A stretch of 64,000 bases of DNA from an uncultured bacterium (GTDB lineage: Bacteria > Verrucomicrobiota > Kiritimatiellia > CAIVKH01): the NCBI GenBank assembly GCA_903906425.1, contig CAIVKH010000238.1, positions 4,444-68,443 of the forward strand, read 5' to 3'. The number at the start of each line of letters is the position of its first letter. The first letter of the stretch is position 1. Below, in pieces: positions 13,677 through 63,514 of the stretch. The position numbers and the translations under genes are program-made. The notes under the pieces are model-generated. The model was not told the origin of the DNA, ran no database searches, and was given only the letters and a program-made list of their open reading frames with translations.

Positions 13677-13704
13677 TGCAAGGCGCAAGGATGACCTGCG
13701 TGAT

Positions 13705-13751: not shown

Positions 13752-13830
13752 GCCAGAGTGTCCGGCTCTGATTTTTTGAATTGCCGTGATCCGCAATATT
13801 TCAACGGCAACACCGCAGGGGAATGCGTGG

Positions 13831-14259: not shown

Positions 14260-14646
14260 CTAGACGACTTTGACGCCCTTGGCATCAAGATCTGCGCGTA
14301 TCTTGGCTTCTGCGGCCGCCCAGTGGTCTTCGGGGTTTCCAGTGAAGCCATTCTTCTCGGCAATGTAATACGCCGCTTGCTCTACCATGCTGCGCCATTC
14401 CGATTGCGATATTGTTTTGGCGCCAGTTCGTGCCGATACTACGGCACGTGAAGGCGGCGCAACGGGCGCGACAGACCTCACAGGAGCGGGAATGACGGGT
14501 TTTGCTGGGGCGATGGCAACGGGTGCCGGCGTGGCGACTTTGATGGTTTTAATTTCGGCGGCTGGTGCGCTAGAAATCTTCTGCGTGACCGCTTTTGTTC
14601 CGGCCACCGTAGCTTTGCTTGGAGTTGTTTTCTTAGGAGGTGCCAT
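14260..14646 (-). CDS. DUF2934-like small protein
   Basis: C-terminal ...MVEQAAYYIAEKNGFTGNPEDHWAAAEAKI resembles the DUF2934 signature. Ala/Pro-rich N-terminal half. Confidence 0.55.
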   Translation of the reverse strand: MAPPKKTTPSKATVAGTKAVTQKISSAPAAEIKTIKVATPAPVAIAPAKPVIPAPVRSVAPVAPPSRAVVSARTGAKTISQSEWRSMVEQAAYYIAEKNGFTGNPEDHWAAAEAKIRADLDAKGVKVV

Positions 14647-14779
14647 GTTAAGTGTTCCTCAATTTATATGAATATTTCAGGTAAAACACGGGGGCGACGA
14701 TACACTCGCCCCATGTGAATTCAAGTGAGTTTTTTGTTAAGTTTTCGACGAGTCAACCGATTAAATCAGGCTTCTTTGC

Positions 14780-16513: not shown

Positions 16514-16520
16514 TCGAAAC

Positions 16521-17654: not shown

Positions 17655-17672
17655 GGAATTTCAGGCCGCAAT

Positions 17673-17719
17673 TTCCAATGATTGGAAGTTGCGGGCGAGC
17701 AAATTTCCAATCATTGGAA
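17673..17719. repeat. P15 pair, 32-bp phase
   Basis: Perfect copies at 17673-17687 (G) and 17705-17719 (C). Spacer gttgcgggcgagcaaat. Lies between the GT9 stop and the hemW start on the minus strand. Confidence 0.95.
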
Positions 17720-17734
17720 GTTCCGGCGCGCCGG

Positions 17735-22133: not shown

Positions 22134-22136
22134 GGG

Positions 22137-22442
22137 CTAGCGGACGCGCGACGCCGCAGAGGCATCGCCTTCAAATTTGAAAATGGTCTCGCCGGGCTTG
22201 GCGTATCCAAAGTCCTCGCGGGCGATTTTTTCGACGAAGCGCGGATCGGTCTGGAGCCGGTCTTCCCTGATCTTCAGGTCGTCGAGCTTCGCTTGCTGTT
22301 GTTTAACGTCTTGCTCCAGCTCAGCTTTTCTCGTCAGCAGCGTGTGGCGTTCGAGGAGCGGCTTGCGATAACCGTATCCGATGGCAACGATGACAAGCGC
22401 CGCGCCAACTGCAATGGATGCTTTGAAGACGGTATTCCACAT
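22137..22442 (-). CDS. ftsB: Septum formation initiator FtsB/DivIC family
   Basis: N-terminal TM segment, coiled coil (ELEQDVKQQQAKLDDLKIREDRL), then DPRFVEKIAREDFGYAKPGE. Conserved eno-ftsB neighbourhood. Confidence 0.8.
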   Translation of the reverse strand: MWNTVFKASIAVGAALVIVAIGYGYRKPLLERHTLLTRKAELEQDVKQQQAKLDDLKIREDRLQTDPRFVEKIAREDFGYAKPGETIFKFEGDASAASRVR

Positions 22443-22494
22443 GATTTTTGCGGAGTGTAGTGAATCGTTAGTTTTTGGCTAGAACAGAAAATAG

Positions 22495-22525
22495 AAAAAA
22501 GCCCCGCCTGCGGGCGGGGCTTTTT
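22495..22525 (-). terminator. Rho-independent (bidirectional-looking) terminator after eno
   Basis: Stem gccccgcc/ggcggggc (22501-22508 / 22513-22520) with loop tgcg. Flanked by A6 on one side and T5 on the other, so a U-run follows the hairpin on either strand. Confidence 0.75.
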
Positions 22526-22552
22526 CTTCATGCGGCGCGGGCCGTCGCGTCA

Positions 22553-23836
<1,284 letters not shown>

Positions 23837-24156
23837 TTATGAAAAAAGTCGGCGCACGTTAGGCAAAACACCTGCGGGCCGCAAGCACGTATCCCGCGGA
23901 ATTTTCAAATCGGGGAAAAGCCGAAGGCCGTCTATTCCGTCAAGAATCTCTCGAAATGAAGCCGTGGCGCCGCGATCTCCATTGGTCTAAATGATGAAAT
24001 TGCCGGGAACGCTACGTCACCCGATTTCCGGCTCCAAAGCGAGAGACTATTCTTTGCAACTTTGCCTGCTGGACGATGCGGGTGCCATCAAGGCACCCGA
24101 TCTGCAAATTAAAATCACCGCACATCTCCCCTCGTTTGGTTGCTCTCAACAACCGC

Positions 24157-24594
24157 TCAGGAATGTGCCGTGTTCTTGTCGTCATCGAGTTCCTTTATGA
24201 TGCGGTCGTAACACGAAGGACAGACTCCGTGGCTGAATTCCGCCAGCGTTCGGTCGGATACATAGGCTTCCATCTGCTGCCACGCGCTGTTCTCGATTTG
24301 AACTTTCTTGCAGTACGAACAGACGATGATGAAGCCGCGCAAAATACGCTTTTTCTGAAGATATGTGTGGCCGACAGTGACGATGCAAACGGCAATGATG
24401 CCTGCGGTGATCAGGCTGGCCTTGAGCCAGTCCGCCGGTTCGTGCGGCGTGCCATACAACAGGTGCTTCAGATCGACAATTTCTGCCGCCCAAACGAAGC
24501 AGATCAAGAGAAGGAAACACATGAACTGCCAGAACGCGACGTGTTCCAGCGGCTTTTGCAAGGGCTGTTCGCGGTTCATCTGCGGGTTCTTCAT
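24157..24594 (-). CDS. Hypothetical membrane protein with C-terminal Cys4 tail (CSYCKK...SHGVCPSC)
   Basis: Two or three TM segments, then IIVCSYCKKVQIENSAWQQMEAYVSDRTLAEFSHGVCPSCYDRI. AT-richer than its surroundings. Confidence 0.55.
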   Translation of the reverse strand: MKNPQMNREQPLQKPLEHVAFWQFMCFLLLICFVWAAEIVDLKHLLYGTPHEPADWLKASLITAGIIAVCIVTVGHTYLQKKRILRGFIIVCSYCKKVQIENSAWQQMEAYVSDRTLAEFSHGVCPSCYDRIIKELDDDKNTAHS

Positions 24595-24745
24595 CTGGTC
24601 AGCTTAGCTTTCGGCCCTGTCTATTGTAAGTTTTTTCTGCCCGGTCCGGATGCGGAATGAACTCCATTCCTTTGGACGAAGCGTGCCTGTCCCGACGCAG
24701 GGCGGATTCCCTCTTGATTCGGCTTGATCTGCCGGCGTTCATTTC

Positions 24746-24763
24746 GTTCAATCTAGATTGAAC
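24746..24763. promoter_or_regulatory. 18-bp perfect palindrome GTTCAATCTAGATTGAAC (candidate operator)
   Basis: Read directly. Lies in the 430-bp divergent region between the minus-strand Cys4 membrane protein gene (24594) and the GbsR/MarR-like regulator gene (25024). Confidence 0.4.
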
Positions 24764-24881
24764 GCTTGAGTCATGCGTGTGTACACTTGGTCCTCCGACA
24801 AGCCGCAATCCGCTTCGGGACGCGACGGGGACGAAGTCTGCCAGCCTCCGCTGCCAATTTGCTCAATCGATCAACGCGAAG

Positions 24882-24928
24882 TTCCAATGATTGGAAACTG
24901 CCGTTGCCGGATTTTCCAATCATTGGAG
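24882..24928. repeat. P15 pair, 32-bp phase
   Basis: Perfect copy at 24882-24896. Copy at 24914-24928 is ttccaatcattggaG (1 mismatch). Spacer actgccgttgccggatt. Confidence 0.9.
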
Positions 24929-25023
24929 ATTCCGCGCGCGATGCCGATGCCTCCTTGCATTTGAATTGAACCCGCCACGCCAGTCCTGCCTACAGAGCGC
25001 AGGATGTGCCTTGGGAAATAAAT

Positions 25024-25524
25024 ATGACGGATAACCCTGATCTCATTCGACAACGCTTCATTGAGGCAACCGGCAACGCGACGCAGGCCATCGGCGTCGG
25101 GCGGATCATCGGGCAGGTTTTCGCACACGCCTACCTGAGCCGCGAACCGCAAACACTGGACGATCTGTGCGACAAGCTTGGCATCAGCAAAGGCAGCGCC
25201 AGCATGGTCGTCCGGCAGCTCGAAAGCTGGTCCGCGCTCAAGCGCGTCTGGGTCAAGGGCGACCGGAAAATGTATTACGAAACGACCGACGAATTCGGAA
25301 AAATCTTCCGCAAGGCGCTGTTTGATTTCGTCGGACGGACGATGGAAACAAGCAACGGCCTGCTCGCCGAGGCCGACGCCGCGCTCTCCGCGAAAAACAC
25401 GAAGGGCGCGAAAAACAGCGAGGATCTTGAATTTTTGCATGACCGCATCGCCAAGGTCCGGAATTTCCGCGACCGCGCGCAATATCTTTGGAACAGCCCC
25501 GTGATCCGGACGCTCTTCAAATAA
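25024..25524 (+). CDS. GbsR/MarR-type winged-helix transcriptional regulator
   Basis: ...GRIIGQVFAHAYLSREPQTLDDLCDKLGISKGSASMVVRQLESWSALKRVWVKGDRKMYYE... ATG at 25024. Confidence 0.7.
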   Translation: MTDNPDLIRQRFIEATGNATQAIGVGRIIGQVFAHAYLSREPQTLDDLCDKLGISKGSASMVVRQLESWSALKRVWVKGDRKMYYETTDEFGKIFRKALFDFVGRTMETSNGLLAEADAALSAKNTKGAKNSEDLEFLHDRIAKVRNFRDRAQYLWNSPVIRTLFK

Positions 25525-25551
25525 CCCGGCGTTAAATCCGCAACGTGAAAT

Positions 25552-27006
25552 TTGAAATCGCCTGACGAAATCCTTTCCGCCGCCCGCGTCGCCATCGCGC
25601 GCGATCCATCCGCAGGTTATCCGCCGCTTTCCGCCGCGCCATTTCACCCGTCGGAGCAAATACCAGAATATCGCGGACCGGTTGCGAAAGAACACAATCC
25701 AGTATTTGCGCTCGTGCGCGAGGCGCTTCGCGAACTCGGCCTCGATGCTGCCAGATTTGGAACGGCGGAATGGAATCCGATCGGCGATCTCGTGCCGGCC
25801 GGCGCGAAGATTGTCGTGAAACCGAACTGGGTTTTGCATCGGAATGAAGGCAGCGGCGGAACCGACGAGTTGATCACGCACGCATCGGTTCTGCGGGCCA
25901 TCCTCGAATATGTGTGGCTCGCGAATCCGGGCAAGGTTGTCGTCGGCGACGCGCCGCTGCAAATCTGCGATTTCGGCGCGATGATGAAACTTGGGTTCGA
26001 CCGCGTGGCCGACTATTTCAAATCTTCGGGTCGCGAAATCGTCGTGAAAGACTTCCGGCGGACGGTGATGGTTCGCGAAGATACCAGGGCGGATGTCAGT
26101 GAAAATCTGAAACCGCTTGATGATTTTGTCATCGTTGATCTCGGCCGCGATAGCTTGCTCGAACCGATATCTGGTGACGCGGGAAAATTCCGCGTGACGA
26201 TGTACGATCCGCGCAAGATGGGCGAAAACCACCGGCCCGGTGTTCACCGCTATTTGATCGCCCGCGATGTGCTCGAAGCGGACCTCGTCATCAACGTTCC
26301 GAAATTGAAGACGCACAAAAAAGCAGGCGTGACGCTCGCGCTGAAGAATCTGGTCGGCATCAACGGCAACAAGGACTTTTTGCCGCACCACCGCAAAGGC
26401 GCGGCGAATCGCGGCGGCGACAATTACGCGGAAGCATCGCTGCCGAAAACGGCGGCGGAGAATCTTCTCGATTTTATCAACCGCCATCTCGACAAGCCGC
26501 GGTTTTATCAGCGTAGCGCGGTGATGATTTACAAGCTGCTCTGGTTCGACAAAATTCGCGGCAGGCTGACGGACATCGAAGGCGGCTGGCACGGCAACGA
26601 CACGATCTGGCGGACGTGCCTGGATTTGAACAAGGCGCTGATTTACGCGGATGCAAATGGAAGATTTCACGACACGCCGCAACGGAAGACGCTGCACATT
26701 TGCGACGGGATCATCGGCGGCGAAGGCGAAGGGCCGCTGCGACCGATCGCGCGGAAAGCCGGCGTCATCACAGCTGCGATCAACGCCACGGCTCATGACT
26801 GGATCGCCACGAAAATCATGGGATTCGATCCGGCGCTGATTCCGATTTGCCGCCACGCGTTCGATGCGCAGAAATTCCCGCTCGCGGATTTTTCGCCGGA
26901 TTCGATCGAAATTCGCGGAAGTCCTTTGATGCCGGCCCAACCACCATTCAAGCCGGCCGCGGGCTGGCGTGCAAAACTTCTCGCGCAGGAAACGGCTAAT
27001 TTATGA
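25552..27006 (+). CDS. DUF362 domain protein (paralogue 1)
   Basis: IVVKPNWVLH..., INVPKLKTHKKAGVTLALKNLVGINGNKDFLPHH, WHGNDTIWRTCLDLNKA. TTG start is uncertain. Confidence 0.6.
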   Translation: MKSPDEILSAARVAIARDPSAGYPPLSAAPFHPSEQIPEYRGPVAKEHNPVFALVREALRELGLDAARFGTAEWNPIGDLVPAGAKIVVKPNWVLHRNEGSGGTDELITHASVLRAILEYVWLANPGKVVVGDAPLQICDFGAMMKLGFDRVADYFKSSGREIVVKDFRRTVMVREDTRADVSENLKPLDDFVIVDLGRDSLLEPISGDAGKFRVTMYDPRKMGENHRPGVHRYLIARDVLEADLVINVPKLKTHKKAGVTLALKNLVGINGNKDFLPHHRKGAANRGGDNYAEASLPKTAAENLLDFINRHLDKPRFYQRSAVMIYKLLWFDKIRGRLTDIEGGWHGNDTIWRTCLDLNKALIYADANGRFHDTPQRKTLHICDGIIGGEGEGPLRPIARKAGVITAAINATAHDWIATKIMGFDPALIPICRHAFDAQKFPLADFSPDSIEIRGSPLMPAQPPFKPAAGWRAKLLAQETANL

Positions 27007-28175
27007 AACCGATTCGCCCCAATGAAAATTTTCTCATCTTCGGCTCGCCCGCGATCGAGCAGCCGGAAATTGACGAGGTGATGGATTGTTTCAAGCGCAG
27101 CTGGCTCGGCACCGGGCCGAAGGTCGCGAAGTTCGAGGAGGATTTTTGTGGTTATATCGGCGCGCCGAATGCGACGGCGGTGAATTCCTGTACCGCTGCA
27201 CTTCATCTGAGTTTGATCGCCAGCGGCGTCGGGCCCGGCGACGAGGTCATCACGACGCCGATGACGTTTTGCGCGACGGCGAACGCGATCATTCACGCGG
27301 GCGCAATGCCGGTGCTCGCGGACGTCGATCCGCAAACGATGAATCTCGATCCGCGCGAGGTGGCGAAAAAAATCACGCCGAAGACTCGCGCGATCTTGCC
27401 AGTGCATTTTGCGGGACGCCCGTGCGACATGCCGGCGCTCGTCGCGCTGGCGGAAAAACACGGGCTGAAGATCATCGAGGATTGCGCACACGCGATCGAA
27501 ACGCAGATTGGCGAAAAACACGCGGGAACGTTCGGCGATTTCGGCTGTTTCAGTTTTTATGTGACGAAAAACATCATCACCGGCGAGGGCGGGATGGTCG
27601 TGACGAAACGCGAGGAGGACGCCGCACGGATCAAGATGCTCGCGCTGCACGGCATGAGCAAGGACGCGTGGAAGCGGTTCAGCGACGAGGGCTACAAGCA
27701 TTATCAAGTGGTCGAATGCGGCTTCAAATACAACATGATGGACGTGCAGGCAGCGATCGGAATCCACCAGCTGCGGCGCATTGAAACCTACTGGCGACGC
27801 CGGACGGAGCTCTGGGCGCGCTACAACGAAGCATTTGCGAAGCTTCCGATCACGCTGCCCGCGCCCGCCGCGCCCGGCACGCGCCACGCATTTCATCTTT
27901 ATTCGATTTTCGTGGACGAGTCGCGCTGCGGAATTTCGCGCGACGCCTTTCTCGACGGCATGACGCGGCACAACATCGGCGTCGGCGTTCACTATCTGAG
28001 CCTGCCGGAACATCCGTATTATCAGCGCACATTCGGCTGGCGCGCCGGGGATTTTCCGAACGCGATGAAGATCGGCCAGCAGACCGCGAGCCTGCCGCTT
28101 TCGGCAAAACTCACAGATGACGATGTCGCGGATGTGATCGCGGCGGTGCGGCAGCTCTGCGGGAATTTCCAATGA
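27003..28175 (+). CDS. DegT/DnrJ/EryC1/StrS-family PLP-dependent sugar aminotransferase
   Basis: ...CTAALHLSL..., FCATANAIIHAGAMPVLADVD, FSFYVTKNIITGEGGMVVT (PLP Lys). ATGA overlap with DUF362. The stop TGA is the centre of P15 copy 28167-28181. Confidence 0.9.
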   Translation: MKPIRPNENFLIFGSPAIEQPEIDEVMDCFKRSWLGTGPKVAKFEEDFCGYIGAPNATAVNSCTAALHLSLIASGVGPGDEVITTPMTFCATANAIIHAGAMPVLADVDPQTMNLDPREVAKKITPKTRAILPVHFAGRPCDMPALVALAEKHGLKIIEDCAHAIETQIGEKHAGTFGDFGCFSFYVTKNIITGEGGMVVTKREEDAARIKMLALHGMSKDAWKRFSDEGYKHYQVVECGFKYNMMDVQAAIGIHQLRRIETYWRRRTELWARYNEAFAKLPITLPAPAAPGTRHAFHLYSIFVDESRCGISRDAFLDGMTRHNIGVGVHYLSLPEHPYYQRTFGWRAGDFPNAMKIGQQTASLPLSAKLTDDDVADVIAAVRQLCGNFQ

Positions 28176-28213
28176 TTGGAAGTTGCGAGGGCTGTTTTTT
28201 CCAACCATTGGAA
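28167..28213. repeat. P15 pair, 32-bp phase
   Basis: Perfect copy at 28167-28181. Copy at 28199-28213 is ttccaaCcattggaa. Spacer gttgcgagggctgtttt. Confidence 0.9.
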
Positions 28214-28236
28214 ATTTTCGGGACGGATTAAGTTCG

Positions 28237-30192
28237 ATGTGTGGAATTGCAGGATGTCTGGCGGCGCGGCGTGATGGCGGGCGAATCGCTCGCGATGTGG
28301 CGGCGATGACGCGCGCACTGGCGCATCGCGGGCCGGATGACGAGGGGCTTTTGTTCTGGCGGCGCGGTTCGGTTGTTTGCGCGGCAACGGATCAAACGGT
28401 CGCCCCGATTCGCGGATCCCTGGCAAATTCAGCGGCGCATCTTGACGATGCCTGGGAGATCGCGCTGGGTCATCGGCGGTTCTCGATCCTGGATGTGACG
28501 CCGGCGGGGCATCAGCCATTCGTGGATCCGGAGGGGCGGGCCGCGCTGGTTTTCAACGGCGAGATTTACAACTTCGTGGAGCTGCGCCTAGAGCTGGAAA
28601 AACTCGGGGCGGTGTTTCACACGCGCTCCGACACAGAGGTGTTGTTGCAGGCCTATCTGCACTGGGGTGAGGCGATGCTGCCGCGCCTCAATGGAATGTG
28701 GGCGTTCGCACTGCTGGATTTTCGCACCGGGCGGGTTCTGCTTTCGCGCGACCGCGTCGGCGAGAAGTCGCTTTTCTACGCGCGATGCGCGGGCCGGTTT
28801 TATTTTGCATCGGAGATCAAGGCGCTTTTCACCGTGCCGGAAATATGGTCGCAACGGAAAGTCCGCGACGATCTGGTGCGCGACTATCTTTTTCTCGGCT
28901 TGCGTGATCATACATACGAATCGATGTTCGAGGGCATCGTCAATCTGCCGCCAGCGACGTCCGCGTGGGTGGATTCGGGGGGCGATGTTCGTCCGAAGAG
29001 TTACTGGCAGCTGCCTGCAGCGCGAAAGGCAGAAGATGAAATCGGCCGCGATGAAGCACAGCGGCGGTTAGTCGAAATCTATTCTGACAGCGTCGGCATC
29101 CGTCTGCGCGCCGACGTGCCGCTGGCCGCCGAACTCAGCGGGGGCATGGATTCGACAACACTGGTGGCTCTTGCGGCGAAGCGGCTGCGAGGGGAAAATG
29201 CGGCGCACGGGTTGCGGACATTCACCGTCCGCTACGATGATCCGAAGTTCGATGAATCGTCTTATGCGGAGAAGACCGCTGCGATGGCCGGAGCGGAATT
29301 CAACCCGATCCTTCTGAAGTCGGAGGATTATTGGGCCCGGGCGGAAACGATGTTGCGGACGCTCGAACAGCCGTACGAGTCGCCGAATCTTCTCGGTTGT
29401 CTTTCGATGTGGACGATGATGAAAAGTCTGGGAATCCGCGTCTCGCTTAATGGTGGCGCAGGCGACGAACTGCTGGCGGGGTACATTGGTCATCATCTGC
29501 TTCCCTTCTTGCGCGAGATGCTGGAGAATGGGCAATGGAGCGCGGCCATGAACGAAGTGCGTTTATGGCGAGGAACACCCTATCTCAACGGCGTGCTCGC
29601 GCGGCGCTTTGCTTTGCATCAGATGCCCGGCCCGCTTCGTCGCATGTACGCACGGCGCATACTGGCCCTGCCGGAATTCTCAGCCTTTCCGTTGCCGCCC
29701 GATGGCGGCGACCGCATCGTTGGCGCCGCAGAGAAGCTTGGATTGGGGAACTTGAGCACCACGCTGGCGCGCAATATCGGATTCACGCCGATCCCGATGT
29801 ATGTCGTCCAGAGCGACAAGCTCGCGATGTCCATTCCTATGGAACTGCGATATCCGTTCCTGGATCACCGGATGATGGACTTTGCGTTCCAACTTCCAGT
29901 TTCGTATTTGATCCGCGCGGGCCGCAGCAAGGCGGTGCTGCGCGATGCGGCGCGAGGGCTTGTACCCGATGAAGTCATCAACCGCCGCGAAAAGATGGGC
30001 TTCCCTGTTCCGCTGCGGCAATGGATGCATGAGGGCATGGAGTATCTGCGAACACAGCTTGGACCAGAGGCGCGATCCGGGCGTTTTGTCAACGCCGCCA
30101 CCGTTCTTGCCGATTCTGGCAGGTTTTCCGAAGCGGTGCTGTGGCGGATTCATCAGGTGGAACTCTGGATGCGCGTCTTCGATTTGCATTGA
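28237..30192 (+). CDS. Asparagine synthase (glutamine-hydrolysing)-family amidotransferase
   Basis: MCGIAG N-terminal nucleophile and SGGMDSTTLVAL PP-loop. ATG at 28237; the track start 28183 runs through P15. Confidence 0.88.
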   Translation: MCGIAGCLAARRDGGRIARDVAAMTRALAHRGPDDEGLLFWRRGSVVCAATDQTVAPIRGSLANSAAHLDDAWEIALGHRRFSILDVTPAGHQPFVDPEGRAALVFNGEIYNFVELRLELEKLGAVFHTRSDTEVLLQAYLHWGEAMLPRLNGMWAFALLDFRTGRVLLSRDRVGEKSLFYARCAGRFYFASEIKALFTVPEIWSQRKVRDDLVRDYLFLGLRDHTYESMFEGIVNLPPATSAWVDSGGDVRPKSYWQLPAARKAEDEIGRDEAQRRLVEIYSDSVGIRLRADVPLAAELSGGMDSTTLVALAAKRLRGENAAHGLRTFTVRYDDPKFDESSYAEKTAAMAGAEFNPILLKSEDYWARAETMLRTLEQPYESPNLLGCLSMWTMMKSLGIRVSLNGGAGDELLAGYIGHHLLPFLREMLENGQWSAAMNEVRLWRGTPYLNGVLARRFALHQMPGPLRRMYARRILALPEFSAFPLPPDGGDRIVGAAEKLGLGNLSTTLARNIGFTPIPMYVVQSDKLAMSIPMELRYPFLDHRMMDFAFQLPVSYLIRAGRSKAVLRDAARGLVPDEVINRREKMGFPVPLRQWMHEGMEYLRTQLGPEARSGRFVNAATVLADSGRFSEAVLWRIHQVELWMRVFDLH

Positions 30193-30236
30193 GACCAGCG
30201 CGGTCGAGCGCTGATTTCAAAAGAAAGAACCTGATC

Positions 30237-30854
30237 ATGAATGCGAGGATGTTATATCGCCGTTTGCTTCCGCAGGGTGTCAGAACGCGAGTGCGGAAGC
30301 TTCTGGACGAGCTGATCACCGAATCCAAGGCGCCCAGAATGGTAATGGGCTATCGCGATGCCTCCGGCGAATTGCGTCCGCGGACAAGATTGAGTGACAC
30401 GGTCTTTCTGTATCACCGTGAGCGGATCAACATCGCCGACAATGCCTTCGTCTGGCACTACACAATTTTGGATGGGACCGGCGGACTGACAATCGGCGAG
30501 GGCGCGCAAATCGGCGCGTGGGTGGGGATATTCACACACAGTTCGCACATCTCGATCAGGCTGTATGGCCGGCACTATCAAGACGTGCATGAAGACGAAA
30601 AGAAGGGCTACGTGAAATCGCCGGTTTCAATCGGGCCATACACATTCGTCGGAGCAGGCTCGTTGATTCTTCCCGGTGTTACCATCGGCAAGGGCGCGCT
30701 GGTTTCTGCGGGCAGCATCGTGACGCGCGCCGTGAAGGACTTTGAGGTTGTGTCTGGAAATCCCGCCGAGGTGGTTGGCGACACACGCGTGCTGGACAAA
30801 CGGTGCCTTCGCGATCCGCAACTTCAGGGCTGGTACGATGAATGGCAGCATTGA
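30237..30854 (+). CDS. Hexapeptide-repeat (LbH) acyl/acetyltransferase
   Basis: ...IGEGAQIGAWVGIF..., VSIGPYTFVGAGSLILPGVTIGKGALVSAGSIVTRAV...SGNPAEVV. Confidence 0.8.
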   Translation: MNARMLYRRLLPQGVRTRVRKLLDELITESKAPRMVMGYRDASGELRPRTRLSDTVFLYHRERINIADNAFVWHYTILDGTGGLTIGEGAQIGAWVGIFTHSSHISIRLYGRHYQDVHEDEKKGYVKSPVSIGPYTFVGAGSLILPGVTIGKGALVSAGSIVTRAVKDFEVVSGNPAEVVGDTRVLDKRCLRDPQLQGWYDEWQH

Positions 30855-31556: not shown

Positions 31557-32635
31557 AAATCGGCATCATCGGATTTGGCGGAGCAGGTCAGGCGCATTAC
31601 CGCCGCTTTGTCACGTTGCCCGGCGTGTCGGTTGCGAGGGTATTCGAGCCGAAGCCGGACAACCGCGCAAAGTGGCAGAAACAATTTCCGCAAATTACGT
31701 TCGCGACAAGCCGCGAGGAGTTGCTCAATGCCGTTGACCTTGTGAGCATCTGCACGCCGGATCACCTGCACGCCGGCGATGCGCTTGCGGCAATCGGCGC
31801 CGGCAAACATACGCTGGTTGAAAAACCGATGGTCACGACCCGCGGGGATGCGGAACAAATCGCCGTGGCGCTTCAGATCAATCCGCGTGTTGTTTTCGGC
31901 GTTCACCACCAGATGCGTTTCATTCCGGCCTTTGTTGCGGCCCGCGATCTTTTGCAGCGCGGCGAACTCGGCACCCTGCTGGCGCTGGAGGCGGACTATC
32001 TTCACGACATGCGTGAGCGCGCGACGTTGTTCGACGACTGGCGGGTCCGCCCGGAAGGTTTTCAGCAGATCGGCCTCGGCGGCTTGTCACACACGCTGGA
32101 TCTGCTGCGCTGGGTGGCGGCGGATGAGATTGCAGAAGTCCACGCCTACGGCGGCCACAATGGCTGGCCCGAATATCCGGACATCGACACGATGACCGCG
32201 ACGCTGCGTTTCCGCTGCGGAGCAATCGGGCGGACGTTCATGACGATCGCCAGCCCCGGCCCTCAACGCAACACGCTGGCGGTCTACGGCTCGAACGGCC
32301 AGGTCCGGGACAACGTTCTCTGGCCGGCCCGGCGCACGCGGCCCCGCCTCACCGTCGTCCCGCGCAGTCTGGCGGCACGGAAACGCGACCGCGCAGGGCT
32401 GGCAATCGCCGGTTTGCTGACAAGATTTTCCATGTTCCGCAACTATCCGCTCAGCGCCTACGAGCACGACGAAGCGAGCCTGCGGCTGGTGCGGGAGTTC
32501 ATTTTATGCGCACGCGATGGCCGCCCGTTTTCCATCGGCGTCGAAGATGGCCGGCGCGCGGTCGACCTGTGCCTCGCCTGCATCGAATCGCAGCGCGGCG
32601 GCCGGCCCGTCGCTCTTCCAATGATTGGAAAATGA
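31553..32635 (+). CDS. Gfo/Idh/MocA-family NAD(P)-dependent sugar oxidoreductase
   Basis: MKIGIIGFGGAGQAHY Rossmann start, ...ICTPDHLHAGDALAAIGAGKHTLVEKP. ATGA overlap with the upstream methyltransferase. The C-terminal ...LPMIGK is encoded by P15 copy 32616-32630. Confidence 0.85.
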   Translation: MKIGIIGFGGAGQAHYRRFVTLPGVSVARVFEPKPDNRAKWQKQFPQITFATSREELLNAVDLVSICTPDHLHAGDALAAIGAGKHTLVEKPMVTTRGDAEQIAVALQINPRVVFGVHHQMRFIPAFVAARDLLQRGELGTLLALEADYLHDMRERATLFDDWRVRPEGFQQIGLGGLSHTLDLLRWVAADEIAEVHAYGGHNGWPEYPDIDTMTATLRFRCGAIGRTFMTIASPGPQRNTLAVYGSNGQVRDNVLWPARRTRPRLTVVPRSLAARKRDRAGLAIAGLLTRFSMFRNYPLSAYEHDEASLRLVREFILCARDGRPFSIGVEDGRRAVDLCLACIESQRGGRPVALPMIGK

Positions 32636-32662
32636 CGCGACGCACACTTCCAATCATTGGAA
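32616..32662. repeat. P15 pair, 32-bp phase
   Basis: Perfect copies at 32616-32630 (G) and 32648-32662 (C). Spacer aatgacgcgacgcacac. Confidence 0.95.
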
Positions 32663-34139: not shown

Positions 34140-35384
34140 ATGCCGCTGCGCGTCCTTCATGTTTTCGGCCAGTACCTCCACGATACGGAGAACTGGGCGT
34201 TTCGTCTGATCCGCGACATTCCGGACTGCAAAGTACTCGTCGGCGCAGAGCAGTTTCTGAAATGCGGCTTCTACGATCCCCGCTTCGAATTCATCGAGTT
34301 TCCATTCCGGCAGTGGGACCGTCCGCGGCGGAACATTCTCGAACGCGCCGCGAACGGCTTCATCAGCCACGCGCTGCTGCCGTTCTATCCACGCTGGCTC
34401 GCAAGCCAGTCCGGGCCGGTTGACATCGTCCACGCACACTTTGGCTACATCGGCTGGCAGTATCTTCCGACGGCGCGGAAACTGCGCGCGCCGCTCGTCG
34501 TTTCCTTTTACGGCTCCGACTACAGCCGCCTGCCGACCGAGCAGCCCGTCTGGCGGGAGCGCTACCGCGACCTCTTCGGCGAGGCGGCTCTCATCCTGTG
34601 CGAAGGTTCGCACGGCATCGAGCAGCTTGTTGCGCTCGGCTGCCCGCGCGAAAAAATCGCCGTTCAACACCTCGGCATCGATCTGAAAACCTCCGTCGCC
34701 GGGCGCGAAACGGAAATTTCCAATGATTGGAAAAATGCCGCCGGAAGACTTCCAATCATTGGAAATTTTTTTGCGCCGCGGACGAAGAGGCCGGGCGAGT
34801 TGCGCCTCGTGCAGGTGGCGACGATGCGCGAGAAGAAGGGGCACATCTATACCGCACAGGCGTTCAGGGAGGCGTTCGCGGATTGCCCGAACCTGACGCT
34901 GACTTTCGTCGGCGGCGACAAGGAAGACCTGAAGGGCGGCGTGGAAAAAGCGCTCGGCCCGGCGCTTTCGCGCGTGGAGTTTCTCAGCGGAATCGATTTT
35001 GCGCGGCTGCACGAATTCCTGCGCGGATTTCATGTCTTCATTCATCCGAGCGTCCACGCTGCAAACGGTGACTGCGAGGGCGGCGCGCCGGTCGTGCTGC
35101 TCGACGCGCAGGCAACGGGAATGCCGGTGATCGCCACGCGGCATTGCGACATTCCCGAGGAAGTCCGCAACGGCGAAACCGGATTGCTCGCGGATGAAAA
35201 GGATGTGGCCGGCCTTGCCGCGGCGATCCGCCGGTTTTATGCGATGGATCAGGCGGAATATGACGGGTTCGCGACGCGCGCAGCGCGGCATGTGGCGGCG
35301 GAATATGAGACGGGAAGGAATGCCGCGGCGCTGCGGGCGCGCTATGATGAAATCGCGGCTGGTCATCGGCGCGCGGGACCGTAG
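34140..35384 (+). CDS. Glycosyltransferase GT4 family carrying an in-frame P15 pair in the interdomain linker
   Basis: MPLRVLHVFGQY..., ...VATMREKKGH..., IHPSVHAANGDCEGGAPVVLLDAQATGMPVIATRHCDIPE. The linker ...GRETEISNDWKNAAGRLPIIGNFFAPR... is encoded by 34718-34764. Confidence 0.8.
   Translation: MPLRVLHVFGQYLHDTENWAFRLIRDIPDCKVLVGAEQFLKCGFYDPRFEFIEFPFRQWDRPRRNILERAANGFISHALLPFYPRWLASQSGPVDIVHAHFGYIGWQYLPTARKLRAPLVVSFYGSDYSRLPTEQPVWRERYRDLFGEAALILCEGSHGIEQLVALGCPREKIAVQHLGIDLKTSVAGRETEISNDWKNAAGRLPIIGNFFAPRTKRPGELRLVQVATMREKKGHIYTAQAFREAFADCPNLTLTFVGGDKEDLKGGVEKALGPALSRVEFLSGIDFARLHEFLRGFHVFIHPSVHAANGDCEGGAPVVLLDAQATGMPVIATRHCDIPEEVRNGETGLLADEKDVAGLAAAIRRFYAMDQAEYDGFATRAARHVAAEYETGRNAAALRARYDEIAAGHRRAGP
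34718..34764. repeat. P15 pair inside a CDS, 32-bp phase
   Basis: Perfect copies at 34718-34732 (G) and 34750-34764 (C). Spacer aaatgccgccggaagac. Confidence 0.95.
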
Positions 35385-37714: not shown

Positions 37715-37761
37715 ATCCAATCATTGAAAAAATGCCCTCCCCTGATTTCCAATCATTGGAA
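37715..37761. repeat. P15 pair (first copy degenerate), 32-bp phase
   Basis: aTCCAATCATTGaAA at 37715-37729 (2 mismatches). Perfect TTCCAATCATTGGAA at 37747-37761. Confidence 0.85.
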
Positions 37762-44172: not shown

Positions 44173-44220
44173 TTCCAATCGTTGGAAAGCTTCGATGCCG
44201 GACACTTCCAGTCAGTGGAA
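44173..44220. repeat. P15 pair, both copies degenerate, 33-bp phase
   Basis: ttccaatcGttggaa at 44173-44187 and ttccaGtcaGtggaa at 44206-44220. Confidence 0.75.
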
Positions 44221-46234: not shown

Positions 46235-47607
46235 ACACACACCTTCTTACCTACCTAAATCTGCAGCGCCTCATCGGCTCGCGCTGCGATCTGCACTATC
46301 GCGAGTTCCAATCATTGGAAAAGGCGGACGCGGAAACTTCCAATGATTGGAACTCGGCGAAACTCGAATCGCTCTTGCGGGACGCGGCGGAAAAAATTCC
46401 GTTTTATCGCGGGGTCGTCGCAAGAAAATCTCCGGCACTTTCCGACTTTCCGGTTCTGACGAAGGAAACAATTCGTGCGCGGTATTTCGATTTGATGTCG
46501 CCGCTGTTGCGGGCGGAATACGAGGCGAACGGCGGAAAATGTCCGCAACGCTACGGCTGGCTCGAAGTGAAGACAGGCGGTTCGACGGGTGTTCCGCTTG
46601 CTGTGATTCATGAGAAAGATTTTCGCGATCTCGACCGAGCATCGCGGATTTATCAGCAGGATTTGTGCGGCTTTCCGTTCGGCACGCCATATTTTCGTTT
46701 GTGGGGTTCGATGGCGGACATCAATGCGATGAAAGATTCGCGGCTTCATCGCACAATGACGGCATTGGCGCGCGAGGAATTGCTCAACGCGTTTCGGATG
46801 GAAGAGGCGCAGATGGATTTGTATCTCGACCGGATTGACCGCAGCGATGTCCGCCACATGATGGCCTACACAGACGCGGCATTCGCGCTCGCACGGCACG
46901 CGCGCAGGCGTGGGAGAGAAATTCGTCCGCTCAAAAGCATCATGGCGTGTGCGGGAACCGTGACGGACGATATCCGCGCGGAGCTTCGCGAAGTTTTCGG
47001 CGCGCGCATTCACAACAAATACGGGAGCCGCGACGCGGGCGAGATGGCTATCGAATGCGAGCGCGGCGGGCTTCACGAACTTTCGACTGCGATACATCTC
47101 GAAATCGTGGACGCAAACGACAGGCCATGTGCGCCGGGCGTTTCGGGCCGACTGCTGGTGACGTGCCTGTGCAATTTCAACTTCCCGATCATTCGCTACG
47201 AAATCGGCGATGTCGCCGCGTGGTCGGGCCGCGCGTGCGAATGCGGAAGACCGCAGCCGGTTTTGGAAAGGCTTGAAGGCCGTTGCGTCGAATTTGTCAC
47301 TCGCGAAAACGGCGATTACGTTTCGCCGATTTTCGTGATTCATATTGTTGGCGTGGTTCACAATCCCGGTTTCATTGAACGATTCCAGCTTGAGCAGACC
47401 GGCGCGTCGGAATTCGTGTTGCGCGTCGAAACAAAAACGCCGCTGACAGATTCTGCGCGCAATTCCTGGTGGCCCGCTCTGGAACGCGATTTGAAAACAG
47501 TTTTCGGCGCGGGCGCCCGGCTCGATTTGTATCTGACCGATAGAATTCCCGAAAGCGGCAGCGGAAAGTTTCTTTATGTTATCAATCGTCTTGGTGCGTT
47601 CAGATGA
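46231..47607 (+). CDS. Phenylacetate-CoA-ligase/CapK-family adenylate-forming enzyme
   Basis: ...LLRDAAEKIPFYRG..., KTGGSTGVPLAVIH (AMP-binding P-loop-like). The GTG start overlaps the upstream TGA (GTGA). The N-terminal ...REFQSLEKADAETSNDWNS... is encoded by the P15 pair. An alternative in-frame TTG at 46375 cannot be excluded. Confidence 0.7.
   Translation: MNTHLLTYLNLQRLIGSRCDLHYREFQSLEKADAETSNDWNSAKLESLLRDAAEKIPFYRGVVARKSPALSDFPVLTKETIRARYFDLMSPLLRAEYEANGGKCPQRYGWLEVKTGGSTGVPLAVIHEKDFRDLDRASRIYQQDLCGFPFGTPYFRLWGSMADINAMKDSRLHRTMTALAREELLNAFRMEEAQMDLYLDRIDRSDVRHMMAYTDAAFALARHARRRGREIRPLKSIMACAGTVTDDIRAELREVFGARIHNKYGSRDAGEMAIECERGGLHELSTAIHLEIVDANDRPCAPGVSGRLLVTCLCNFNFPIIRYEIGDVAAWSGRACECGRPQPVLERLEGRCVEFVTRENGDYVSPIFVIHIVGVVHNPGFIERFQLEQTGASEFVLRVETKTPLTDSARNSWWPALERDLKTVFGAGARLDLYLTDRIPESGSGKFLYVINRLGAFR
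46306..46352. repeat. P15 pair within the 5' part of an ORF, 32-bp phase
   Basis: Perfect copies at 46306-46320 (C) and 46338-46352 (G). Spacer aaggcggacgcggaaac. Confidence 0.95.
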
Positions 47608-51599: not shown

Positions 51600-51646
51600 T
51601 TCCAATCATTGGAAAAAACGCCCGCGCAAAATTCCAATCATTGGAA
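51600..51646. repeat. P15 pair, 32-bp phase
   Basis: Perfect TTCCAATCATTGGAA at 51600-51614 and 51632-51646. Spacer aaaacgcccgcgcaaaa. Confidence 0.95.
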
Positions 51647-56366: not shown

Positions 56367-56445
56367 TTCCAAGGATTGGAACTTTGCGCTGCGAAGTCCT
56401 CCAATGATTGGAAGTTTGCGCGGGCGGAATTTCCAATGATTGGAA
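56367..56445. repeat. P15 triplet, 32-bp phase
   Basis: ttccaaGgattggaa at 56367-56381, Ctccaatgattggaa at 56399-56413, perfect copy at 56431-56445. Spacers ctttgcgctgcgaagtc and gtttgcgcgggcggaat. Confidence 0.9.
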
Positions 56446-56575
56446 AGGGGCGGAAACCGCGGCCCCGAAGGGCGACATCGGGGCAAACCTGAAGTGCGGG
56501 AGGGCCGCTTGACTTGAATCGGGCGTTGGCTAGTATCCGCGCCTCATTTTGAACGCCAACAACAGGAGAAATAAA

Positions 56576-59344
56576 ATGGCAAAATCAGCGCAAAGCGCGA
56601 AGAAACAGTACGTGTATTTTTATGGTTTCGGCAAGAAGCACACCGAGGGTGATGCTTCGATGAAGCCGATCCTCGGCGGCAAGGGCGCAAATCTCGCAGA
56701 GATGGCGCTGGCCGGCCTCCCGGTGCCCCCGGGCTTCACGATCTCGACGGAGGCGTGCGCCTACTATTCGAAGAACGGCAGCAAGTATCCGCCGGGTATG
56801 GTCGAGCAGGTCAAGTCGCAGCTCAAGAAGCTCGAGACGATGATGGGCAAGAAGCTCGGCGACGCGACCGATCCGCTGCTGGTTTCCGTCCGTTCGGGCG
56901 CGGCGATTTCGATGCCGGGCATGATGGACACGGTCCTCAACCTCGGCCTCACCGACAAGTCGGTGCAGGGTTTCATCAATAAGACCGGCAACGCGCGCAC
57001 GGGCTGGGATTGCTACCGCCGCTTCGTTGACATGTTCGGCGACGTGGTCATGGGCCCGACGACCGGCTTGAATCATCACGATTACGAAGTCGAGCTGACG
57101 CGCATCAAGCAGAAGTACGGCGCGAAGGAAGACACGGATCTGACGGCGGACCAGCTCAAGGAACTCGTCGAAATTTACAAGCGCGTTTATCAGCAGAAGG
57201 TCAAGAAGCCGTTCCCGCAGGATCCGTGGGAACAGCTTGATCTCTCCATCCAGGCCGTGTTCGGCTCCTGGAATTCCGAGCGCGCTGAAAAATATCGCAT
57301 CATCAACAAGGTGTCGGGTCTGCTCGGCACGGCCGTGAACATCTGCTCGATGGTGTTCGGCAACATGGGCGACACGTCCGGCACGGGCGTCGCGTTCACG
57401 CGCAACGGCGCGACCGGCGAAGTCACGCCGATGGGCGAATATCTGATCAACGCGCAGGGCGAAGACGTCGTCGCGGGCATCCGCACGCCGAAGAATCTCG
57501 AAGAGATGGTCAACGAGGAAAATCCGATCTGGAAGAATGCTTCGAAGCAGTTGCATGAAATCATGCACAAGCTCGAGCGCCACTACAAATATCCGCAGGA
57601 TGTCGAGTTCACCGTCGAACAAGGCAAGCTGTGGATGCTGCAAACCCGCAACGCCAAGCGCACCGGCCTCGCCGGCGTCCGCTGGGCCTGCGAAATGGCG
57701 ACGGGCAAGGATTTCTTCACGGGCAAAAAGCAGGACAAGATCCTGACCGCGCAGGAAGCCATCAATTCCGTCAGCGGCGCGGACCTCGAACAGTTGCTCT
57801 TCCCGATTTTCAATCTGGAAGAAGAAGCGAAAGCGACGAAGCTCGCGTCCGGACTTCCCGCCGGCCCCGGCGCTGCCGTCGGCAAAATCTGCTTCTACGC
57901 GCACGACGCGGAAGCGCTCGTCAAGGCCAACGCCAACGAGAAATTGATTCTCGTCCGTCACGAAACCTCGCCCGAAGATGTCGGCGGAATGTGGGCTGCC
58001 CAGGGCATCCTCACCTCCACCGGCGGCATGACCTCGCACGCGGCCGTCGTGGCCCGCGGCTGGGGCAAATGCTGCATCGCCGGCGCGAGCACGGTCCGCA
58101 TTGATTACGATGCCAAGACGATCACCGTCGGCGACAAGGTCCTCAAAGTCGGCGACTGGATCAGCCTCAACGGTTCGACCGGCATCGTCTATCTCGGCCA
58201 GATTCCGACCGACGCCAGCCCGGTGGTTTCCGCCGTGGTCGATGGCAACGCGGGCGCGAAGAAGCACGCGATCTACAAGATGTACCAGCAGATCAGCGCC
58301 TGGTCCGACCAGTTCCGCAAGATGAACGTCCGCACCAACGCCGACACGCCGAAAGACGCCGTCAACGCGCGTAACTTCGGCGCGGAAGGCATCGGACTGT
58401 GCCGCACAGAGCACATGTTCTTCGAAGGCGACCGCATCTGGGCCAAGCGCGAATTCATTCTCGCCGAGACCAAGGAAGCCCGCGAAAAGGCGCTCACCAA
58501 GTTGCTGCCCTATCAGCGCGCCGACTTCGAAGGCATCTTCCAGGCGATGGACGGCCTGCCCGTCACCATCCGCCTGCTCGACCCGCCGCTGCACGAATTC
58601 CTCCCGCACGACGACGAAGGCCAGGCCGAAATGGCCCGCCGCCTCGGCGTCAGCGTCGAGAAGGTCAGGCAGCGCGTCAAGCAGCTGCACGAAGCCAACC
58701 CGATGCTCGGCCATCGCGGCTGCCGCCTCTCGATCACCTATCCCGAGCTGATCGTCATGCAGACCACCGCGATCATCGAAGCGGCCTGCAACGTCGAGAA
58801 GAAGAAGATCAAGGTGCTGCCGGAAATCATGGTGCCGCTCGTGGGCAACAAGACCGAGCTGGACTTCTGCGAAAAGATCATCCGCGAAACCGCGAACAAG
58901 ATCATCGCGGCCCGCAAGTCGAAGGTGAAGTACATGGTCGGCACGATGATCGAAGTTCCTCGCGCCGCCGTCACCGCCGACCAGATCGCGGAGACCGCCG
59001 AGTTCTTCAGCTTCGGCACGAACGACCTCACGCAGATGACCCTCGGCTTCAGCCGCGACGACATCGGCACGTTCCTGCCGGATTATCTGACGCAAAAGAT
59101 TCTGCCGTTCGATCCGTTCGGCAGCCTCGACATCGCCGGCGTCGGCCAGCTCATTGAAATGGCCGTCAAGAAAGGCCGCGAGACGCGTCCTGGTATCAAG
59201 TGCGGCATCTGCGGCGAACACGGCGGCGACCCGAACTCCGTCAAGTTCTGCTACAAAGCCGGCCTGAACTACGTCAGCTGCTCCCCGTTCCGCGTGCCGA
59301 TCGCGCGACTGGCCGCGGCGCAAGCCGCGCTCGCGAAGAAATAA
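56576..59344 (+). CDS. ppdK: Pyruvate, phosphate dikinase
   Basis: GGKGANLAEM, GGMTSHAAVVARG (phospho-His), CRTEHMF, GICGEHGGDP. ATG at 56576 with SD aggag. Confidence 0.95.
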   Translation: MAKSAQSAKKQYVYFYGFGKKHTEGDASMKPILGGKGANLAEMALAGLPVPPGFTISTEACAYYSKNGSKYPPGMVEQVKSQLKKLETMMGKKLGDATDPLLVSVRSGAAISMPGMMDTVLNLGLTDKSVQGFINKTGNARTGWDCYRRFVDMFGDVVMGPTTGLNHHDYEVELTRIKQKYGAKEDTDLTADQLKELVEIYKRVYQQKVKKPFPQDPWEQLDLSIQAVFGSWNSERAEKYRIINKVSGLLGTAVNICSMVFGNMGDTSGTGVAFTRNGATGEVTPMGEYLINAQGEDVVAGIRTPKNLEEMVNEENPIWKNASKQLHEIMHKLERHYKYPQDVEFTVEQGKLWMLQTRNAKRTGLAGVRWACEMATGKDFFTGKKQDKILTAQEAINSVSGADLEQLLFPIFNLEEEAKATKLASGLPAGPGAAVGKICFYAHDAEALVKANANEKLILVRHETSPEDVGGMWAAQGILTSTGGMTSHAAVVARGWGKCCIAGASTVRIDYDAKTITVGDKVLKVGDWISLNGSTGIVYLGQIPTDASPVVSAVVDGNAGAKKHAIYKMYQQISAWSDQFRKMNVRTNADTPKDAVNARNFGAEGIGLCRTEHMFFEGDRIWAKREFILAETKEAREKALTKLLPYQRADFEGIFQAMDGLPVTIRLLDPPLHEFLPHDDEGQAEMARRLGVSVEKVRQRVKQLHEANPMLGHRGCRLSITYPELIVMQTTAIIEAACNVEKKKIKVLPEIMVPLVGNKTELDFCEKIIRETANKIIAARKSKVKYMVGTMIEVPRAAVTADQIAETAEFFSFGTNDLTQMTLGFSRDDIGTFLPDYLTQKILPFDPFGSLDIAGVGQLIEMAVKKGRETRPGIKCGICGEHGGDPNSVKFCYKAGLNYVSCSPFRVPIARLAAAQAALAKK

Positions 59345-59373
59345 TCCCGAAGCAAATCGCAAACTGAAAACGG

Positions 59374-59400
59374 CCCCGGATTCCCGGGGACGTTTTTTTT
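59374..59400 (+). terminator. Rho-independent terminator after ppdK
   Basis: Stem ccccgg/ccgggg with loop attc (59374-59389), followed by acg and T8 (59393-59400). Confidence 0.75.
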
Positions 59401-59409
59401 CATCGCGAC

Positions 59410-59521
59410 TTCCAACCATTGGAAAATCCCGGCGCGCAAACCTCCAATCATTGGAGAAATCCGGCGCACAGATTTCCAACCATTGGAAACTTTCGGGTGC
59501 GATGGTTTCCAATCATTGGAA
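59410..59521. repeat. P15 quadruplet, 32/32/33-bp phase
   Basis: ttccaaCcattggaa at 59410-59424, Ctccaatcattggag at 59442-59456, ttccaaCcattggaa at 59474-59488, perfect copy at 59507-59521. Confidence 0.9.
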
Positions 59522-60482: not shown

Positions 60483-60529
60483 AATCCAATCATTGGAAAA
60501 TTTCGCGATCGAAACTTCCAATGATTGGA
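60483..60529. repeat. P15 pair (each copy 1 mismatch), 32-bp phase
   Basis: Atccaatcattggaa at 60483-60497 and ttccaatgattggaT at 60515-60529. Convergent gene ends on both sides. Confidence 0.85.
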
Positions 60530-60556
60530 TTTTTTCTTCGCCGGCTCGCGACAGTT

Positions 60557-62193: not shown

Positions 62194-62240
62194 TTCCAAT
62201 CATTGGAAAACTGGATTGCTCAAACTTCCAATGATTGGAT
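62194..62240. repeat. P15 pair, 32-bp phase
   Basis: Perfect copy at 62194-62208. ttccaatgattggaT at 62226-62240. Spacer aactggattgctcaaac. Confidence 0.9.
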
Positions 62241-63467: not shown

Positions 63468-63514
63468 TTCCAATGATTGGAACTTTGCGCCCCCGCAATT
63501 TCCAATCATTGGAA
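63468..63514. repeat. P15 pair, 32-bp phase
   Basis: Perfect copies at 63468-63482 (G) and 63500-63514 (C). Spacer ctttgcgcccccgcaat. Confidence 0.95.

Follow-up and report, generated by a model that had tools for sequence, protein, structure and literature searches.

The 15-nt palindrome TTCCAATSATTGGAA recurs across a 64-kb window of an uncultured Verrucomicrobiota genome, mostly as doublets, and we consider it somewhat probable (roughly 0.55) that these doublets constitute a REPIN-like, non-autonomous miniature repeat family. The window is this single stretch of DNA, to which all window counts and all positions given without a contig name refer. Counted at up to three mismatches, copies number 45, compared with 1.8 ± 1.4 in dinucleotide shuffles (both strands). 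They are organised in 21 loci, of which 19 are doublets and the other two are a three-copy array (56367-56445) and a four-copy array (59410-59521); no singlet was found among these loci. Neighbouring palindromes start 32 nt apart at 21 junctions and 33 nt apart at three. The periodic unit is 32 nt, made up of the 15-nt palindrome and a 17-nt GC-rich polar spacer, and the standard element is the doublet. A preliminary description of this DNA had proposed a polar composite unit of about 47 nt; its polarity stands, whereas its size must be revised to a periodic unit of 32 nt and an inserted block of about 72 nt. The same description located multi-unit arrays only around ppdK, the gene for pyruvate phosphate dikinase, and this is so, since the 19 remaining loci are all doublets and a search of their flanks for decayed additional copies found none. 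The doublet family is a previously undescribed variant resembling REP/REPIN repeats.

Despite a coding content of 92.4%, comprising housekeeping genes and a large polysaccharide gene cluster, 18 of the 21 loci in the window are intergenic (p = 7e-18). The element is present in 18 of the 39 intergenic gaps, and element cores make up 22% of the intergenic DNA. Many copies are located in very short gaps between co-directional genes, and most lie between co-directional genes at 9-34 nt ahead of the next start codon. The end of the upstream gene is overlapped at 28167 and 32616, where the last codons and the stop are themselves element sequence.

In a position-weight matrix, conservation runs a few bases past the 15-mer into A/T-rich, symmetric sequence, after which the GC-rich core follows. 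The differences among palindrome copies are mostly confined to the centre triplet, and the motif is therefore better written in a 6-3-6 form, TTCCAA NNN TTGGAA, the perfect 15-nt palindrome being TTCCAAT-S-ATTGGAA. Only G and C occur as the centre base; read on the GTTTGCGC strand, 32 copies have G and 13 have C (p = 0.007), and the base is G on that strand in all six confidently oriented loci with one shared centre base. The variant TTCCAACCATTGGAA does occur at 28199, 59410 and 59474 as previously listed, but as a change in the weakly constrained centre triplet it is weak evidence for the sub-families read from it. The 7-1-7 box of the Fur family (AATNATT core) was considered for its shape and rejected, as the centre triplet varies freely in relatives. 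In folding predictions the doublets form long hairpins with energies of -33 to -36 kcal/mol (z from -3.3 to -6.4). A known RNA family was rejected after no Rfam covariance model matched the window at gathering thresholds. A CRISPR array was rejected on account of the 15-nt repeat, the limit of four copies per array, the dispersal over 21 loci and the relatedness of the spacers; the lack of cas domains in domain scans of the window proteins also counts against it.

The palindromes and the spacers differ strongly in conservation: about 17 mismatches to the consensus were counted over 630 non-centre palindrome positions (~3%, a rough hand tally), compared with a divergence of roughly 40% of the spacers from their own consensus. 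The 24 spacers of 17 nt are nonetheless related to one another. Their mean best-orientation pairwise identity is 8.77/17, against 5.45 in a full shuffle and 8.12 ± 0.08 in a column-preserving symmetrised shuffle, and none of 1000 shuffles attained the observed value. They are also polar: complementarity between the two ends of a spacer falls below that of a permuted null (z = -2.8), both ends being T-rich on one strand. This anti-symmetry of the spacer was the sole flank or spacer symmetry test to go beyond the permuted null; locus-specific symmetry of the flanks (extension of a locus's own palindrome, outer inverted flanks, direct flanks) did not rise above it. These results confirm the loose directional spacer consensus of the preliminary description, in which all quoted coordinates and sequences agree with the window. 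It is indeed loose, about half of the spacers agreeing at no more than 10 of 17 positions, and the A/T-rich symmetric palindrome flank accounts for part of it. Spacers near-identical to the consensus GTTTGCGCGGGCGTTTT are found at 11041 (reverse complement), 51615 (reverse complement) and 56414, and those at 21042 and 59425 (reverse complement) are close to it. A subfamily, GTTTGCGCGGGCG, is present at 11041 (reverse complement) and 56414, with a 12/13 match at 51615 (reverse complement). An orientation bias relative to transcription, also raised in that description, was not significant, with 12 loci antisense and 5 sense by our own count (p about 0.14); orientation by strand was 14 to 7 (p = 0.19), and GC skew was uninformative for element orientation.

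It had further been suggested that the loci share common descent as a spreading element and are not independently evolved operators. This is supported by a block insertion, by differing occupancy of syntenic sites and by the near-identical spacers at unlinked loci, and further by changes in unit copy number between near-identical strains and, at ppdK, between species. The block insertion is found in a GT4 glycosyltransferase gene (34140-35384), whose product carries 24 extra residues, GRETE-ISNDWKNAAGRLPIIGN-FF, that are missing from 10 of 10 homologues (49-68% identity in the alignment). Comparison at the codon level with three syntenic orthologues identifies the insert as a 72-nt block (34698-34769, minus strand), consisting of a 20-nt flank, the 47-nt doublet (34718-34764) and 5 nt, and lying in frame. 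Occupancy was compared in the syntenic polysaccharide clusters of four relatives (L088-L091), where the GFO oxidoreductase and Wzx flippase genes overlap or are 3-45 nt apart; the window has a doublet there. Similarly, the DegT-AsnB gap is 22 nt in syntenic relatives and occupied by the element in the window. The L088-L091 clusters bear their own 32-nt-spaced doublets at other junctions, and doublets at other junctions were seen in relatives including L089, L091, L097 and L001-L007.

A change in copy number is evident from a contig assembled from a different sample (L096): along the 16.9 kb that match window positions 13698-30623 it is 100% identical but for the loss of exactly one 32-nt unit, a difference that rests on two metagenome assemblies. 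The doublet concerned (21021-21082, plus strand) is a perfect 1.9-copy 32-nt tandem repeat inside a PMT_2/ArnT-like gene (20430-22133, minus strand), where it is read in frame as LPIIGK..FQSLE. Loss of the unit at 21027 leaves a singlet and a frameshifted gene in L096. Because 32 is not divisible by three, the two-unit allele keeps the ArnT-like gene in frame and the one-unit allele (L096 9551) truncates the product to 446 aa. The two alleles may represent a phase-variation-like switch of a surface-modifying enzyme, or else an assembly effect.

The two multi-unit arrays flank ppdK (56576-59344, plus strand, assigned by Pfam). The upstream array (56367-56445, plus strand), in which all three centres are G on the plus strand, ends 130 nt before the ppdK ATG, in accordance with the distance first described, and ~63 nt before a candidate promoter, TTGACT-16-TAGTAT (56509-56536, plus strand), which is located outside the repeat. 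The downstream array (59410-59521, minus strand) is inverted relative to the upstream one and, again as described, follows the intrinsic terminator of ppdK (59374-59400, plus strand), starting 9 nt past its T-run. Array size at ppdK, for which a comparison in relatives had been proposed, does vary: the closest relative (L092, 92% PpdK identity) has two copies at the same place upstream of the gene where the window has three, and its orthologous downstream array holds at least two. A comparison of the window with L092 shows the palindromes and the promoter to be preserved, whereas the remaining intergenic sequence has diverged. Arrays are located upstream of ppdK in L008, L010, L012 and L014 as well. 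The ppdK arrays are old and common to relatives, and they may act in cis at this gene. A relative without palindrome arrays (L095) has a long imperfect inverted repeat rich in CCAAC/GTTGG upstream of its ppdK (~9780-9990).

The exact doublet pattern recurs in several Verrucomicrobiota metagenome-assembled genomes (56-66% GC), with the same palindrome and spacing and with unrelated spacers. The PMT_2 doublet is found at the same position in the orthologues of L097, L098 and P0245 (57-59% identical) and is absent from more distant ones. In these orthologous doublets 28 of 30 palindrome positions are kept by hand count, compared with a gene-wide nucleotide identity of 65-68%, and the spacers agree at 8-10 of 17 positions, also counted by hand from the alignments. 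The palindromes are much better conserved than the spacers, orthologous sites included, and this sequence comparison points to function or active homogenisation besides spread.

An unbiased scan for 6-3-6 palindrome pairs, for which the shuffled control yielded none, revealed doublets with other half-sites at exactly 32 nt, formed by TTCCGA..TCGGAA in L017 (5765-5811) and by CCCTCC..GGAGGG in L018 (19942-19988). In L012 (784-890), TTCCAC..GTGGAA half-sites are spaced at 22 and 31 nt. Since the 6-3-6 shape and the 32-nt period recur with other half-sites, symmetric change of the half-site leaves the geometry unaltered. Over all loci with at most one mismatch, the spacings are 30-33 nt plus one of 22 nt, and at up to two mismatches there are two of 22 nt, both in ppdK upstream arrays (L012 and L014); spacings of about 26-27 or 37 nt were not seen among good sites. 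A putative doublet in gidA of L093 was rejected as a chance match in conserved coding sequence without any insertion. The 64-nt repeats of L032 were also rejected as family members, being a different tandem repeat; they form two 3.7-copy arrays (18327-18564 and 19374-19611) around a 196-nt repeat. Only two doublet matches were found among the IMG/VR viral contigs, which argues that the element is not phage-borne in general; one of the two, on the putatively viral contig L100 (7669-7715), is placed within a 2549-aa open reading frame.

The most plausible explanation of these observations, in our view, is that copies are placed at new sites as blocks, the inserted block measuring about 72 nt, and that inserted copies would persist mainly in intergenic gaps and occasionally in frame within genes. 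A trans-acting, sequence-specific protein would recognise the palindromes, and this could be either a hairpin-recognising enzyme of the HUH/RAYT type acting on single-stranded DNA or a dimeric protein acting on duplex DNA at two sites three helical turns apart. Such recognition would explain the stability of the palindromes and of the 32-nt period beside drifting spacers, as well as the symmetric changes of the half-sites between lineages. We infer that the hairpin may form in vivo and that copying would proceed by a mechanism of this kind. Units would be gained and lost locally through slippage or unequal recombination between the identical palindromes, and such events may have produced the three- and four-copy arrays at ppdK and the singlet of the sister strain.

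This reading follows from the likeness to a known system. Published REPINs replicate as doublets whose ends keep a constant distance and are better conserved than the spacer between them, and which fold into a hairpin (PMC3116915); RAYT transposases mobilise such REPINs and REP/BIME elements (Bertels & Rainey 2011, PMC3116915; Di Nocera 2013, PMC3733652). The window element is likewise high-copy, short, palindromic and mostly extragenic, with the doublet dominant, a fixed distance, ends conserved over the spacer and a predicted single-strand hairpin. Clusters of variable size, long persistence at orthologous sites and lineage-specific sequence variants add to the resemblance. It differs from REP/REPIN repeats in that it carries no GTAG/CGTC tag, that each end is a perfect 15-nt palindrome and its polarity points to a tandem 32-nt unit, that its core is 47 nt with a 32-nt period as compared with at least 71 nt for REPINs, and that neither singlets in the 64 kb nor a RAYT among the scanned window proteins were found. 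The host also differs, as the REPs reported from the Verrucomicrobiota, in Opitutus terrae, are of the GTAG type. In the literature searched, the motif strings were not found, nor were such repeats in Opitutaceae or Verrucomicrobia beyond the GTAG-type REPs of Opitutus terrae.

For a MITE, terminal inverted repeats and a target-site duplication would be expected; formally the identical palindromes can be taken as inverted ends, and no duplication is visible at the GT4 insertion within the uncertainty of its boundaries. Other small repeats share some traits with the window element. The MIRU-type intergenic variable-number tandem repeats of mycobacteria, said to have been described by Supply et al. 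in 1997, reportedly have non-palindromic units of 40-100 bp at ~40 loci per genome. The window element resembles them in its tandem units in operon gaps, in the overlap with neighbouring stop and start codons and in a copy number that varies between strains, here by an exact 32-nt difference between the window and L096 and by three versus two copies at ppdK in L092; unlike them it is palindromic, is fixed as doublets and occurs at one locus every 3 kb. The palindromic elements of Rickettsia (RPE) are 100-150 bp long and mostly inside genes. They too are palindromic repeats lying in frame within coding genes and adding a tolerated peptide segment, but they do not have the periodic 32-nt doublet architecture.

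Several observations weigh against a REPIN-like origin and must be set beside those in its favour. No target-site duplication is visible at the GT4 insertion, where the block boundaries are uncertain by several nt. No transposase domain was found in scans of the window proteins, which covered the map of open reading frames except the fragment at 3-203, and the GTAG/CGTC tag is not enriched, being present within 12 nt of 9 of the 45 copies compared with 11.8 ± 3.0 at random positions. The polarity of flank and spacer, as well as the perfect 32-nt tandem repeat at 21021-21082, points to direct units and not to an inverted pair, although each palindrome is its own reverse complement and the two arrangements are for this reason indistinguishable. 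The doublet inside the CapK-like open reading frame (46306-46352, minus strand, aa 26-41) brings no change in length relative to nine homologues. Its first palindrome falls on F-x-x-L-E, a conserved motif for which TTC CAA nnn TTG GAA is a possible coding sequence. Simple insertion does not account for this copy, which seems to have arisen in place or by replacement of a stretch of equal length. The CapK-like gene of L091 was rejected as an orthologue for an empty-site comparison, since at 24% identity it is a paralogue. Finally, three observations fit DNA binding by a host protein at least as well as recognition by a transposase: the spacings of 22 and 30-33 nt are near whole helical turns, the palindromes are conserved across species at orthologous sites, and L010 and L014 have ppdK arrays though few other copies were seen in them.

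The last of these points lead to the alternative that survives best, though we hold it to be rather unlikely as a full account: the doublets may be phased operator arrays for a dimeric DNA-binding protein of the host, a global regulator or a nucleoid-associated protein. One dimer would occupy each palindrome, two dimers would be bound cooperatively three helical turns apart, selection for binding would preserve the sites and ppdK would be an ancestral target; a copied origin of the sites is compatible with this. Arrays of the Lrp/AsnC or NtrC type consist of degenerate sites, number tens to hundreds and are not block-copied. The window element is similar to them in having dimer-sized palindromes of ~15 bp about three helical turns (31-33 bp) apart, of which such arrays carry 2-6 upstream of promoters; it differs in its density in operon gaps and coding sequence and in its related polar spacers, neither of which is seen in those arrays. 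The perfection of the 15-bp palindromes and the symmetric co-variation of their half-sites between lineages favour a binding site, as does the confinement of spacings to 30-33 nt and the two cases of 22 nt; a copying process is however required by the 72-nt GT4 block and by the consensus-identical spacers at unlinked loci. Orthologous palindromes are conserved like the promoter while spacers and other intergenic sequence diverge, and ppdK keeps its upstream arrays in L008, L010, L012, L014, L092 and the window, even where other copies are few. Against this, the occupation of nearly half of all gaps, including operon gaps at ~14-30 nt from start and stop codons, and of coding sequence is atypical for operators, and the distances to promoters and start codons vary. 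The origin of the CapK-like copy without a change in length agrees with operators. No candidate binding protein was found in the window. The winged-helix genes beside 321 (ArsR-like) and 24882 (CudC/MarR-like) were considered and rejected, being unrelated to each other and without support.

The copied-element and binding-site explanations are compatible, because copied elements can carry a binding doublet under selection. One may tentatively speculate that the doublets are genome-wide sites of a dimer-of-dimers protein of Verrucomicrobiota, both copied and selected by the host. They would serve to regulate or insulate strongly expressed genes, among them ppdK with its mutually inverted arrays on either side that are conserved across species. 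If so, the specificity of the protein would co-evolve with the half-site (TTCCAA, TTCCAC, TTCCGA and CCCTCC), and gain or loss of the 32-nt unit would create frame-shifting switches in surface glycosyltransferase genes.

A role at the level of RNA, in which hairpins in polycistronic mRNAs would stabilise or process transcripts, as has been proposed for REPs, or couple stop and start codons of adjacent genes as MIRUs do, seems to us improbable. The predicted hairpin energies and the location of most copies shortly ahead of the next start between co-directional genes are in line with it, and so is the provision of a TGA stop or an ATG start by the palindrome centre (window 28167, L004 and L091). 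Complementary centre bases, found in 13 of 19 doublets, are mildly in excess (p = 0.03), yet the sequence itself is conserved beyond what pairing would need. Sense transcription is moreover not expected for the ppdK arrays, of which one precedes the promoter and the other follows the terminator, nor for copies between convergent or divergent genes, and the 12 to 5 orientation count relative to transcription is not significant.

Spread and maintenance of an uptake-signal-like sequence by biased DNA uptake and recombination (molecular drive) is highly improbable, for although the high density, the in-frame copies in genes, the dialect-like variants across related lineages, the conservation at orthologous sites and the CapK-like copy that originated in place without a length change would suit it, the strong exclusion from coding DNA is unlike uptake signal sequences (USS), the GT4 copy is a block insertion, and to our knowledge strict doublets, a polar spacer and a 32-nt period are not properties of DNA uptake sequences (DUS) or USS.

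The remaining loci of the presumed REPIN-like family are all doublets and are described here from left to right, with the orientation of the element in brackets. The first (321-367, plus) is in a divergent intergenic region upstream of the ArsR-like gene, and the second (2450-2496, plus) is in a glycosyltransferase/sulfatase gap, 14 nt past the stop and 22 nt ahead of the ATG. A doublet with 33-nt spacing (5887-5934, minus) begins 1 nt past the stop of an upstream glycosyltransferase gene; coding repeats of 63, 66 and 132 nt follow (6520-7277) in the gene for a NosD-like beta-helix protein (6018-7571). A doublet is found upstream of the pyruvate/2-oxoacid dehydrogenase E1 operon (7597-7643, minus), and another stands after the E2 gene (11026-11072, minus), its spacer being the consensus GTTTGCGCGGGCGTTTT at 17 of 17 positions. 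The unannotated gap downstream of the latter also contains a 21-nt tandem repeat (11228-11300) of 3.5 copies of TAATCAAACCAATCCCCGCC with 90% matches. The doublet at 13705-13751 (minus), the spacer orientation of which is poorly defined, stands 7 nt from the end of the sister-strain contig L096 (window 13698-13705); repeats of this kind probably break short-read metagenome assemblies. A heptosyltransferase gene and a hemN-like gene, each on the minus strand, flank the doublet at 17673-17719 (minus).

A divergent gap holds the doublet at 24882-24928 (plus), 77 nt ahead of the MarR/CudC-like gene with which the polysaccharide cluster begins. Within the cluster, the gap between the DegT aminotransferase and asparagine synthase genes is occupied by the doublet at 28167-28213 (plus), in which the centre TGA of the first palindrome is the DegT stop. 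This centre, CCAATGATTGG, holds overlapping ATG and TGA codons and was seen in the window (28167-28181), in L004 (1191-1205) and in L091 (4936-4950); the TGA is called as the stop of the upstream gene for DegT in the window and for an open reading frame in L004, and the ATG is called as a formyltransferase start in L091. At the junction of the GFO oxidoreductase gene with the Wzx flippase gene, a doublet (32616-32662, minus) supplies the final six GFO codons and the stop. Two further doublets contain a degenerate copy: the first copy at 37715-37761 (minus), a doublet that overlaps the start of a GT4 gene or lies just ahead of it, and the second copy at 44173-44220 (minus, 33-nt spacing), in a GT2/acetyltransferase gap at 4 nt past the stop and 9 nt before the ATG. 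The doublet after an EpsI-like gene (51600-51646, minus) has a spacer agreeing with the consensus at 16 of 17 positions. Beyond ppdK, a doublet of ambiguous spacer orientation, for which no strand is assigned, lies between convergent SDR and GFO/TAT oxidoreductase genes (60484-60530). It is followed by one between two minus-strand genes, for a GFO/TAT oxidoreductase and a PfkB kinase (62194-62240, minus), and by one that separates the PfkB kinase gene from a BNR-repeat gene, again with both genes on the minus strand (63468-63514, plus). Outside the window, L089 has a 722-aa open reading frame (18917-21085) with ADH_zinc_N and GFO/IDH/MocA domains and a doublet (20041/20073) between the two halves, which may be two genes fused via the element.

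REP/REPIN-type repeats are best understood in Proteobacteria, and the range of such intragenomic replicators known so far would be extended by a family of different structure in Verrucomicrobiota. Its distinct traits are the perfect 15-nt palindromes, the strict 32-nt period, the lack of a GTAG tag and a size that ranks with the smallest known. Individual sites can be traced across species, in and outside genes, which offers a clean system for asking what maintains such elements, and the half-site dialects provide a handle for finding the recognising protein via co-variation. The repeats, which account for about one fifth of the intergenic DNA in the window, rewrite gene ends through the stop and start codons they provide, add peptides to enzymes and probably break metagenome assemblies, and one repeat locus may toggle the reading frame of a glycosyltransferase gene between strains.

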